In this document: positions 4,082 to 7,697 of the stretch, in pieces
How the letters are laid out: the number at the start of each line of letters is the position of its first letter
Numbering within the stretch: the stretch's first letter is position 1
Assembly (NCBI RefSeq): GCF_030384885.1
Contig: NZ_CP128613.1
Source: Escherichia coli
Lineage (GTDB): Bacteria > Pseudomonadota > Gammaproteobacteria > Enterobacterales > Enterobacteriaceae
Strand: one strand, 5' to 3'
Length of the DNA: 64,000 nucleotides
Notes under the pieces: generated by a model
The model's database searches: none
What the model was told of the DNA's origin: nothing
Seen by the model: only the letters and a program-made list of their open reading frames with translations
Program-made: the position numbers and the translations under genes

Positions 4082-4492
4082 ATGTCCAGACCAACTATCA
4101 TCATTAACGACCTGGATGCCGAACGCATCGATATTCTGCTGGAGCAACCTGCCTATGCTGGTTTGCCAATCGCCGACGCGTTAAACGCAGAGTTGGATCG
4201 CGCCCAAATGTGTTCGCCAGAAGAGATGCCACACGACGTGGTGACAATGAACAGCCGGGTTAAATTCCGCAATCTTAGCGATGGCGAAGTGCGTGTGCGC
4301 ACGCTGGTGTATCCGGCTAAAATGACTGACAGCAATACTCAGCTTTCTGTTATGGCTCCGGTAGGTGCCGCACTGCTGGGGCTGCGCGTTGGCGATTCCA
4401 TTCACTGGGAACTTCCGGGCGGCGTTGCAACCCACCTTGAAGTGCTGGAACTCGAATACCAGCCAGAAGCTGCTGGCGACTACCTGCTTTAA
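4082..4492 (+). CDS. rnk: regulator of nucleoside diphosphate kinase (GreA/GreB-like)
   Basis: 136-aa ORF recognised as Rnk. Confidence 0.88.
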
Positions 4493-4847
4493 TCCCATCT
4501 GCACAAGCGACAACTCGCTTTGCCCAGAGGATGCACTCGCATCCTCTTTCCGCTCAAATATCAACCAGATTTATCATTTTGCTCTTAAGCACAGCATTCT
4601 AATCTGAACTGGTTATTCATCTGCGGAACCCCATATGAGCGAAGCTCTCAGTATCACTGCGTTTTATATATTTATAGCAGCTATTATTGTTGCTGCAGTG
4701 CTATACCTTGAACAACGCTGGTAGTACCTGGTTTTATTTATTTTCCAGATCAATCGCAAATTCAGATCGAATCAGCCTCGCAAATCATAGATTCATAATC
4801 AATAATGTGCTGTTATGTATACATGCAAAAACAAGGAGAGAATGCTT

Positions 4848-5276
4848 ATGTACAAAACAATCATTATGCCAGTGGATGTATTTGAAATGGAATTGAGCGA
4901 CAAAGCTGTTCGCCACGCTGAATTCCTCGCCCAGGATGATGGAGTTATTCATCTACTTCACGTGCTACCAGGCTCAGCCAGCCTGAGCCTGCACCGTTTT
5001 GCCGCTGATGTGCGCCGTTTTGAAGAGCATCTGCAACATGAAGCAGAAGAACGTTTGCAAACGATGGTCAGCCACTTCACCATCGATCCTTCCCGCATTA
5101 AACAACATGTCCGTTTTGGTAGTGTGCGGGATGAAGTCAATGAGTTGGCAGAAGAACTGGGGGCTGATGTTGTCGTTATCGGTTCGCGCAACCCATCGAT
5201 TTCGACCCATCTGTTAGGTTCTAACGCCTCAAGCGTTATCCGCCACGCCAATCTGCCGGTGCTGGTCGTTCGCTAA
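4848..5276 (+). CDS. uspG: universal stress protein G
   Basis: 142-aa ORF recognised as UspG; start at [10 protein letters not shown] with AAGGAGAG RBS 8 nt upstream; the longer ORF from 4815 is rejected. Confidence 0.85.
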
Positions 5277-5397: not shown

Positions 5398-6963
5398 TTA
5401 TGCTGTTTTGGTGCGAATCAGGTAGTCAAAAGCACTCAGAGAAGCTTTGGCACCTTCGCCAGTGGCGATGATGATCTGCTTGTACGGAACCGTCGTACAG
5501 TCACCCGCAGCGAACACGCCTTTGACGTTGGTTTCGCATTTCGCATCAATGATAATCTCGCCCATGCGGTTACGTTCGACTGCGCCTTCGAGCCAGTTGG
5601 TGTTCGGCAGCAGACCAATCTGGACGAAAATACCGGCCAGTTCGATGTTGTGAATATCGCCGCTGACACGATCTCGATATTCCAGACCTACGACTTTGCT
5701 ACCGTCGCCTTTCACTTCCGTGGTTTGCGCATTCAGAATAATGTCGACGTTTTTCAGGCTGCGCAGTTTGTCCTGCAGAACCTGGTCGGCTTTCATTTCT
5801 GGCGCAAATTCCAGCAGCGTTACGTGCTCAACGATACCCGCCAGGTCGATTGCCGCTTCCACGCCGGAGTTACCGCCGCCGATAACCGCTACGCGTTTAC
5901 CTTTAAACAGCGGGCCGTCGCAGTGCGGGCAGTAGGTCACGCCTTTGGTGCGATACTGATCTTCGCCCGGAACGTTCATGTTGCGCCATTTTGCACCGGT
6001 CGCCACGATAATGCTGCGTGCTTTCAGTACCGCGCCAGAAGCTGTTTCAATCTGATGCAGGCCACCTTCAACCGCTGCCGGGATCAGTTTGCTGGCGCTC
6101 TGGCTGTCGATCACATCAACGTCGTATTCATCAACGTGAACTTTCAGCGCACCTGCCAGTTTCTGGCCTTCGGTCTTCGGTACAGAAATGTAGTTTTCGA
6201 TATCAACGGTATCGAGGATCTGACCACCAAAACGTTCGCCCATCAAACCAGTACGGATACCTTTACGTGCGGAGTAAATTGCTGCCGCTGCACCCGCCGG
6301 GCCGGAACCGACGATTAATACGTCATAAGCATCACGCTTGTTCAGCTCTTCTGCCGCACGTTTTTCCGCGCCAGTATCAATTTTGGCGACGATTTCAGTC
6401 AACGTCATGCGACCCTGACCAAACTCTTTCCCGTTTACGAACACTGCCGGAACGCCCATCACGTTGCGATCGGTGATTTCGTTCTGGAAGGTGCCGCCGT
6501 CAATTGCAGTGTGCTTGATGCGCGGGTTCAGTACGCTCATCAGGTTCAGCGCCTGCACCACATCCGGGCAGTTGTGGCAAGAGAGCGAGTAATAGGTTTC
6601 GAATTCAAAATCACCGTCAATATGGCGAATCTGCTCCAGCAGAGACTGCGCTTCTTTCGACGGATGACCACCGGTCCACAACAACGCCAGTACCAGCGAG
6701 GTAAACTCGTGGCCCAGCGGGGAACCTGCAAAACGTGGCCCCTGGTTGGAACCTGGGTTAGTGATCAGGAAAGACGGCTTACGCACCGGCAAGCTGTTAT
6801 CTTCTTTAAAGGTGACTTTGTCTGACAGTTCTGCGATTTCAGCCAACAGTTCCTTGATTTCTGCCGATTTAGCGCTGTCATCCAGCGTGGCAATTAACTC
6901 AACAGGCTTGGTCAATTTCTCAAGGTAAGCCTTGAGTTGAGTTTTCATATTTGTGTCGAGCAT
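5398..6963 (-). CDS. ahpF: alkyl hydroperoxide reductase subunit F (flavoprotein)
   Basis: ORF recognised as AhpF; start at MLDTNMKTQ (521 aa) supported by AGGAGA RBS; upstream in-frame ATGs at 6993 lack an RBS. Confidence 0.92.
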
Positions 6964-7133
6964 GTTTATCTCCTGGGCTTTAAACATCATCATGCAAGCG
7001 GCCTCTGCGGCTACCTGGATGCAGCTTGCATCATGGTGCGGGGAAGAAAATCGGGTGCCGCAGCACCCGATTAATTAGGTGAATTTCCGAAGTATTTCGC
7101 GCCGGAGTTGGTAGCGCGAAAGACAAAGGAAAT

Positions 7134-7697
7134 TTAGATTTTACCAACCAGGTCCAGAGACGGAGCCAGAGTTGCTTCACCTTCTTTCCATTTAGCCGGG
7201 CAAACTTCACCTGGGTGAGAAGCTACGTACTGTGCTGCTTTGATTTTACGCAGCAGGTCAGACGCGTCACGGCCAATGCCTTCAGCGGTAACTTCGATTG
7301 CCTGGATGATACCCTGCGGGTCAACAACGAAGGTTGCACGGTCAGCCAGACCTTCATCTTCACGCATGTTGTCGAAGTTACGGGTCAGGGCGCCAGTCGG
7401 GTCGCCGATCATCGCATATTTGATTTTAGCGATAGTTTCAGAGCTGCTGTGCCATGCTTTGTGGGTGAAGTGAGTATCGGTAGATACTGCGTATACATCT
7501 ACGCCCAGTTTCTGCAGTTCTTCGTAGTGGTCAGCAACGTCACCCAGTTCGGTCGGGCATACGAAAGTAAAGTCAGCCGGGTAGAAGAAGAAGACACTCC
7601 AGCGGCCTTCGGTATCTTTTTCGGTGATTTCGATGAATTCGCCGTTTTTGAATGCCTGGTTTTTAAAAGGTTTAATTTTGGTGTTAATCAAGGACAT
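7134..7697 (-). CDS. ahpC: alkyl hydroperoxide reductase subunit C (peroxiredoxin)
   Basis: 187-aa ORF recognised as AhpC (2-Cys peroxiredoxin). Confidence 0.95.

Follow-up and report, generated by a model that had tools for sequence, protein, structure and literature searches.

The window analysed here is a stretch of 64,000 nucleotides of Escherichia coli DNA in which rnk, coding for a nucleoside diphosphate kinase regulator (4082–4492, plus strand; 136 aa; Pfam Rnk_N and GreA_GreB), is followed by uspG, coding for universal stress protein G (4848–5276, plus strand; 142 aa; Pfam Usp). Both are read as uninterrupted ORFs. Upstream neighbours in the window include citX, citG, citT and rna, and those downstream are ahpF, ahpC and dsbG. 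The stop codon of rnk occupies 4490–4492 and the ATG of uspG begins at 4848, which leaves a spacer of 355 bp (4493–4847) with a GC content of 40.0% against 51.5% in the whole window.

At this locus E. coli 2013C-4282 (NZ_CP027579.1, a complete RefSeq chromosome of 5.03 Mb) has the same sequence as the window (100% identity), with the annotated gene order rna-rnk-yldA-uspG-ahpF. This strain is a completely sequenced member of cryptic clade I that carries stx1 (PMC10100065). K-12 and the source strain have the same Rnk protein, WP_000089731.1, as the window. Both outer spacings are native, just as an earlier note on this DNA had observed: rna and rnk lie 229 bp apart in both the window and K-12, and uspG and ahpF are separated by 121 bp here versus 120 bp in K-12.

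The same note took the spacer for about 355 bp of AT-rich non-coding DNA. Its length and its 40% GC were as described, but the spacer is not all non-coding: it contains a terminator hairpin of rnk, the small gene yldA and a conserved block upstream of uspG. The terminator-like hairpin (4526–4547, plus strand) has a 9-bp stem (AGAGGATGC/GCATCCTCT) and a 4-nt loop and is followed by TTTCC. Its folding energy is about −15 kcal/mol (z = −3.6 against shuffled sequences), and among 18 loci from several genera the stem is invariant while the loop varies. A consensus terminator scan did not flag this hairpin because its T run is short.

The gene yldA (4635–4724, plus strand; 29 codons plus stop) encodes a small membrane protein, MSEALSITAFYIFIAAIIVAAVLYLEQRW, in what we call the window-type allele. 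Its identification comes from the RefSeq annotation of the identical sequence and from the NCBIfam equivalog model NF041476, against which the window protein scores 57.9 bits (cutoff 45) and the K-12 allele the same; with Pfam PF23689 it reaches 26.5 bits, just below the cutoff of 27. In all 36 of the 36 loci with a detectable yldA, the ORF has 29 codons and sits in the same place, downstream of rnk and on the same strand. Eight codon changes between the window and E. albertii are synonymous and one is non-synonymous; judged by its codons, yldA appears to be under purifying selection.

The window and K-12 alleles of yldA differ at 41 of 90 nucleotides and 14 of 29 residues. The K-12 allele has been detected as a protein by chromosomal epitope tagging (PMC6001520), and in K-12 yldA and ybdR have been listed as a convergent 'excludon' pair (PMC12288877). 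The yldA of the window points at uspG, 123 bp away. Additionally, both YldA alleles weakly match the NCBIfam model of the small membrane protein YoaI (30.2 and 22.5 bits, cutoff 45), a hint that YldA and YoaI may be relatives.

The third element of the spacer is the conserved block at 4780–4847 (plus strand). It is near-invariant among the window, E. albertii, related Citrobacter and an E. fergusonii-type contig, whereas the 55 bp before it (4725–4779) diverge. The last of these, a single contig in a publicly available assembly of sequencing reads (Logan SRR14004275), is named after its Rna protein, called E. fergusonii by NCBI. From this conservation we infer that the uspG promoter and the Shine-Dalgarno sequence probably lie within the block. 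A Shine-Dalgarno motif (GGAG) is found at 4835–4838, and a possible extended −10 element is formed by TG at 4811–4812 and TATGTA at 4814–4819. Consensus scans gave no sigma-70 match in the spacer and no terminator between yldA and uspG. An Rfam scan of the spacer returned no family at threshold, only sub-threshold chance matches to snoRNAs.

In K-12 MG1655, at the b0610–b0607 region, the annotated order is rna-rnk-yldA-ybdR-uspG-ahpF, with ybdR on the minus strand and 1,689 bp between rnk and uspG. The K-12 order that the earlier note had given, with ybdR at this site, is thus the annotated one. YbdR of K-12 is a Zn-dependent alcohol dehydrogenase of about 412 aa, in which we found the Pfam domains ADH_N and ADH_zinc_N. 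The note's central statement, that ybdR is absent between rnk and uspG in the window, was borne out by the list of ORFs, which shows no alcohol dehydrogenase ORF of this kind in 4493–4847, and by the RefSeq annotation. It had also proposed a tblastn search with YbdR and a comparison of the interval across phylogroups. The former, run with the K-12 protein against the whole 64-kb window, gave nothing better than E = 0.27; the latter is described below.

We then took 23 loci that carry ybdR, made an nhmmer profile of them and searched for ybdR remnants; none was found in any window-type locus. The same profile detected the known remnant in Enterobacter asburiae TN152, which served as a positive control (E = 6e-11), and additionally the spacer in E. 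soli and in a Citrobacter MAG. A stretch at 4760–4800, which by eye resembled the 3′ end of ybdR or the region of its GHE motif, was dropped since the profile gave no match there.

A BLASTN comparison of the window with K-12 delimits the difference sharply. Homology runs through the rnk terminator to 4553 (99% identity), which makes the hairpin the last element in common on the left side, and it returns at 4830, with the ribosome-binding site and start of uspG. Between these points lies a haplotype-specific segment of 276 bp (4554–4829, 36% GC) that has no similarity to the 1,611 bp of K-12 at the same place: nothing significant aligned even at word size 7 with dust filtering off. Within those 1,611 bp, ybdR lies between the divergent K-12 allele of yldA and a uspG upstream region unlike that of the window. 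Outside the haplotype limits, the window and K-12 are 97–100% identical.

The divergence of the two YldA alleles, taken together with the gap in BLASTN similarity at 4554–4829, argues that the difference between the window and K-12 is a replacement and not a clean insertion or deletion. Its right border falls within the first ~30 nt of uspG (about 4853–4874). In a multi-strain alignment, K-12 shares bases with Salmonella and some Citrobacter only at nucleotides 6, 9 and 27 of uspG and is E. coli-like beyond. Low identity between the window and K-12 had suggested a divergent tract across the whole of uspG; the alignment shows clade I and mosaic variation instead, and we discarded that idea.

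The K-12 segment does not have the features of a mobile-element insertion. A repeat search at its junctions revealed no insertion-sequence, terminal-repeat or tRNA signature, only short flanking repeats at chance level, and the annotation of the K-12 locus lists no mobility genes. The GC content of K-12 ybdR is 50.1%, like that of its neighbours.

To see how the two forms are distributed, we used a sample of 5,426 complete E. coli genomes, 5,422 of which matched the rnk-uspG query. In 1,816 genomes the match is unbroken, as in the window, and the 276-bp window-type segment occurs in 1,818, always on the chromosome; ybdR is present in 3,605, including O157:H7, O104:H4 and O111:H8 strains. As the genome sets with ybdR and with the window-type segment sum to the total, the two states are essentially exclusive. 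The K-12-type haplotype has an internal diversity of at most about 2%. Identity of at least 99% to the window in the spacer was seen in only 18 genomes, among them the clade I strain EC42405.

Two simple readings of the missing gene can be set against these counts. It is extremely improbable that ybdR dropped out in a misassembly or sits at another place in the source genome. Over the whole region the window matches a complete RefSeq chromosome at 100% identity, and 1,816 independent assemblies have the same junction. The near-complete lack of overlap between the haplotype sets makes a second copy of ybdR very unlikely, and no YbdR-like sequence is found in the 64 kb of the window, out of a 5.03-Mb chromosome.

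That this strain, or clade I, descends from a K-12-like ancestor and lost ybdR recently is also very unlikely. The bare absence of ybdR relative to K-12 is all that speaks for it. The sequence between the breakpoints cannot be aligned with K-12 and is not K-12 minus ybdR, and the same haplotype is present in the 1,816 genomes as well as in five other Escherichia lineages. The window is neither collinear with K-12 nor carries a ybdR remnant, and the absence of the gene is not confined to a single lineage. The lineage-specific deletion, one of two origins that the earlier note had offered, consequently fails on the spread of the haplotype and on the profile search.

Its other option, an insertion specific to K-12, came closer to the truth than the deletion. 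The ybdR-bearing form does appear to be the derived one. It is not specific to K-12, however, being found in 3,605 of the 5,426 genomes, and it is not a simple insertion, since ~0.3 kb seem to have been replaced by ~1.6 kb.

The phylogroup comparison relies on a handful of individually checked reference strains (from A, B1, B2, D, E and F). Strains SMS-3-5, IAI39, 042 and UTI89 are ybdR-free, the last three of which belong to phylogroups F, D and B2, respectively. Those bearing ybdR are K-12, EDL933 and the O104:H4 and O111:H8 strains, which belong to A, E and B1, respectively. SMS-3-5 is a phylogroup F strain (PMC10100065). In general, the tested B2, D and F strains lack ybdR and the A, B1 and E strains carry it, and this distribution fits a single event on one deep branch. 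In the literature searched, no paper combined ybdR with phylogroup.

The only overlap that we noticed between the haplotype sets is strain HH97 (NZ_CP116409.1; locus L003, 3827–4494). Its spacer and its yldA as far as codon 26 are of the K-12 type; ~78 nt of window type come next, with a 91% match to the B2/D/F spacer, followed by a ~190-nt remnant of the 5′ end of ybdR annotated as a pseudogene. The mismatches in this record lean strongly toward G (A>G 19, C>G 18) and toward deletions. Given this bias, we do not use it as evidence of an intermediate third haplotype, which it first seemed to be; it is probably a poor or chimeric consensus.

Two further kinds of variation were seen among E. coli strains. 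Length variants of ybdR (426 aa and 395 aa, 94–96% identical to K-12) occupy the same site between yldA and uspG and seem to reflect internal indels or different choices of start codon. The ahpF-ahpC spacer (6964–7133 of the window; mismatch at ~7080–7155 versus K-12) has at least three lengths: 170 bp in the window and UTI89, 244 bp in K-12 and 042, and 128 bp in SMS-3-5 and IAI39. The distribution of these lengths does not match the ybdR dimorphism.

Outside E. coli, we scanned species-representative genomes for Rnk and screened the resulting 80 loci by tblastn. E. albertii, Escherichia sp. MOD1-EC7003 and 'E. coli' SCPM-O-B-8794 (a separate species representative) are ybdR-free and have a YldA 93–97% identical to that of the window. 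The E. fergusonii-type contig likewise has the order rnk-yldA-uspG, a window-type spacer and no ybdR. Relative to the window, the 276-bp segment is 94.6–95.7% identical in E. coli B2/D/F, 91.7–92.8% in other Escherichia and 84.9% in E. albertii. The identity of ahpF falls in parallel (about 98, 95 and 91%), and rna behaves likewise. That the segment keeps step with ahpF and rna points to vertical descent of the window type within Escherichia.

The E. fergusonii-type contig (locus L095, 5396–8416) is peculiar in other respects. In it dcuC adjoins rna, with neither the citCDEFXGT operon nor dpiAB of E. coli in between. Its divergence from the window is sharply mosaic, with ahpF and ahpC at 97–99% identity, rna at ~76% and rnk at ~85%.

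Every sampled branch of Escherichia outside the A, B1 and E strains is ybdR-free, and on the simplest reading this type is ancestral in the genus. We consider it likely that the native ybdR-free spacer is indeed the ancestral state in Escherichia and that the K-12 form was derived by homologous replacement from another enteric lineage. The haplotype without ybdR would go back to the ancestor that the Escherichia lineages sampled here have in common and would have been inherited vertically by E. albertii, the E. fergusonii-type contig, the two other Escherichia lineages, clade I and the tested B2/D/F strains. Positions 4493–4847 of the window would accordingly be an intact ybdR-free spacer, with nothing deleted in the lineage of this strain.

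On the branch that gave rise to the A, B1 and E strains, ~0.3 kb would then have been swapped for ~1.6 kb by a homologous double crossover. The left crossover may be placed in the conserved 3′ end of rnk and its terminator, and the right one in the first ~30 nt of uspG. The swap would have brought in ybdR, another yldA allele and another uspG upstream region. The putative donor is another enteric lineage whose yldA segment groups with Citrobacter. We infer the direction of the event and its recombination mechanism from the comparisons given here.

The wider family offers evidence of more than one kind on the origin of ybdR. The gene occupies this site, in the orientation that it has in K-12, in Salmonella, C. 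sedlakii, Intestinirhabdus, many Enterobacter, Leclercia, Silvania and Pseudenterobacter; at this site it is missing from many Citrobacter, Lelliottia, Kosakonia, Phytobacter and Kluyvera. K-12 ybdR is ~79.5% identical at the DNA level to that of Salmonella and C. sedlakii, and the flanking genes show similar values (rnk 82%, uspG 79%, ahpF 83–86%). In a protein search, the closest YbdR proteins outside E. coli were those of Salmonella (91–92%) and C. sedlakii (93%); no close non-E. coli source for K-12 ybdR emerged. Matches of 96% identity, first considered as a possible donor, are E. coli length variants at the same site. The 6,656-member protein cluster of YbdR contained, where sampled, only E. 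coli and Salmonella.

YbdR-like proteins of 395–397 aa with 79–82% identity were also found in Klebsiella, Kosakonia, Kluyvera, Yokenella, Phytobacter and C. amalonaticus, all of which have an rnk-uspG site without ybdR. In the genera lacking ybdR at the site, these genes presumably sit elsewhere in the genome. The enzyme family is thus not simply absent there.

The site and orientation of K-12 ybdR and its divergence from other enterics (~79.5% in DNA, 91–93% in amino acids) are what vertical inheritance would predict, which counts against an import. The ybdR-free state could then be a very old deletion with a decayed scar, or the two haplotypes could have coexisted for long. In the first case, the stem of Escherichia would have inherited rnk-yldA-ybdR-uspG from a common ancestor with Salmonella and Citrobacter and lost ybdR once; the window type would be the decayed product, and K-12-type strains would have regained ybdR or kept it through an unsampled lineage. 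As a whole, we find this sequence of events possible but doubtful.

The presence of ybdR at one site and in one orientation across the seven taxa listed above, with species-like divergence, agrees with such a loss. Clean secondary losses do occur here, as in TN152, which keeps ~65 bp of the 3′ end of ybdR. Against it, no window-type locus has a detectable ybdR remnant, and in a tree of the yldA region the window type groups with ybdR-free loci and with none that carry the gene. It is worth noting that an old loss would touch only history deeper than the genus; the content of the window is the same under it.

The tree in question was built by neighbour joining from yldA and the 60 nt upstream of it (about 150 nt) and midpoint-rooted. 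The window type clusters in it with ybdR-free loci of some Citrobacter, Kosakonia and Phytobacter, while K-12 falls with C. sedlakii and two Citrobacter loci, in a group that mixes ybdR-bearing and ybdR-free members. The tree is suggestive, at the depth that such a short alignment and a midpoint root may offer.

In the second case, both haplotypes would be old in Escherichia, Citrobacter and their relatives and would move between species by homologous recombination, perhaps maintained by a coupling of uspG/yldA regulation to the presence or absence of ybdR. This agrees with the existence of two sequence classes for both the yldA region and the uspG upstream region, each class spread over more than one genus, with the difference in class between two strains named C. 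amalonaticus, and with a K-12 segment that has no close donor. On the other hand, the window type follows the species tree within Escherichia, and we saw the K-12 type in no strains but those of A, B1 and E, with at most about 2% diversity, a pattern that one import fits better. We judge a long-lived dimorphism of this kind, together with its proposed cause, to be unlikely.

Bolder still is the idea that the spacer between rnk and uspG is an ancient two-state cassette swapped among Escherichia, Citrobacter and related genera and kept by selection, which at present strikes us as quite improbable. If it held, the two states would be yldA running into uspG with one upstream region, or the other yldA with a convergent ybdR and the other upstream region. 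The cassette would then rewire the expression of uspG and yldA between the block of B2, D, F and clade I and that of A, B1 and E.

The two strains named C. amalonaticus, AUH and S646, have different yldA and spacer classes under one species name. In addition, each carries an insertion of its own. In AUH (locus L019, ~6430–6640), ~170 bp follow rnk between two copies of the rnk terminator hairpin, perhaps as a small element whose target is the hairpin or which duplicates it. In S646 (locus L015, ~6760–6880), ~120 bp lie directly upstream of the ribosome-binding site of uspG.

To return to the replacement that we favour, its possible regulatory consequences concern both yldA and uspG. Since the window lacks a convergent ybdR and any predicted terminator downstream of yldA, transcripts of yldA could extend into uspG in the window type. 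With yldA and ybdR convergent in K-12, and yldA directed toward uspG with no predicted terminator in the window, the transcriptional context of the two genes would differ between the haplotypes. In clade I and the tested B2/D/F strains, the sequence upstream of uspG is completely different from that of K-12, and for this reason what is known of uspG and yldA regulation in K-12 may not transfer to those strains.

K-12 should not be taken as the reference state at this locus. If the ybdR-bearing form is derived within Escherichia, the absence of the gene by comparison with K-12 is no sign of a deletion. Moreover, as yldA shows, a spacer that seems to be non-coding may contain the gene of a validated small protein. 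The difference as such is an ordinary, common and already annotated dimorphism of an accessory gene and its intergenic surroundings.

Among known loci, the closest comparison is the K-12 rnk-yldA-ybdR-uspG locus itself. The two share the flanking genes, the outer spacings, the rnk terminator, the position and orientation of the 29-codon yldA and uspG from about nucleotide 30 onward. The K-12 locus differs in the presence of ybdR, in a yldA 41 of 90 nucleotides apart, and in an rnk-yldA spacer and a uspG upstream region that cannot be aligned with the window. Its yldA converges on ybdR, whereas that of the window faces uspG.

The ybdR deletion in Enterobacter asburiae TN152, seen by comparison with INSAq146, ends in the same order, rnk-yldA-uspG, with a spacer of similar length. 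Unlike the window type, which has neither, TN152 keeps ~65 bp of the 3′ end of ybdR and the cognate uspG-proximal spacer, and it is these that make the deletion demonstrable.

Finally, the exchange resembles the 'switched' intergenic regions, or horizontal regulatory transfer, of E. coli, a concept that the Piggy paper presents and attributes to its reference 17 (PMC5890482). As in those cases, two non-homologous alternatives with no significant BLASTN match lie between the same core genes, the borders are sharp, as homologous recombination in the flanks would leave them, and the exchange takes in the upstream region of a core gene, uspG. It differs from them in that the exchange between rnk and uspG also carries an accessory gene, ybdR, and an allele of a small protein, and in that its distribution so far agrees with deep phylogroup structure and is not obviously incongruent. 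Judged by these sequence comparisons, the exchange between rnk and uspG appears to belong to the class of switched intergenic regions and horizontal regulatory transfer.
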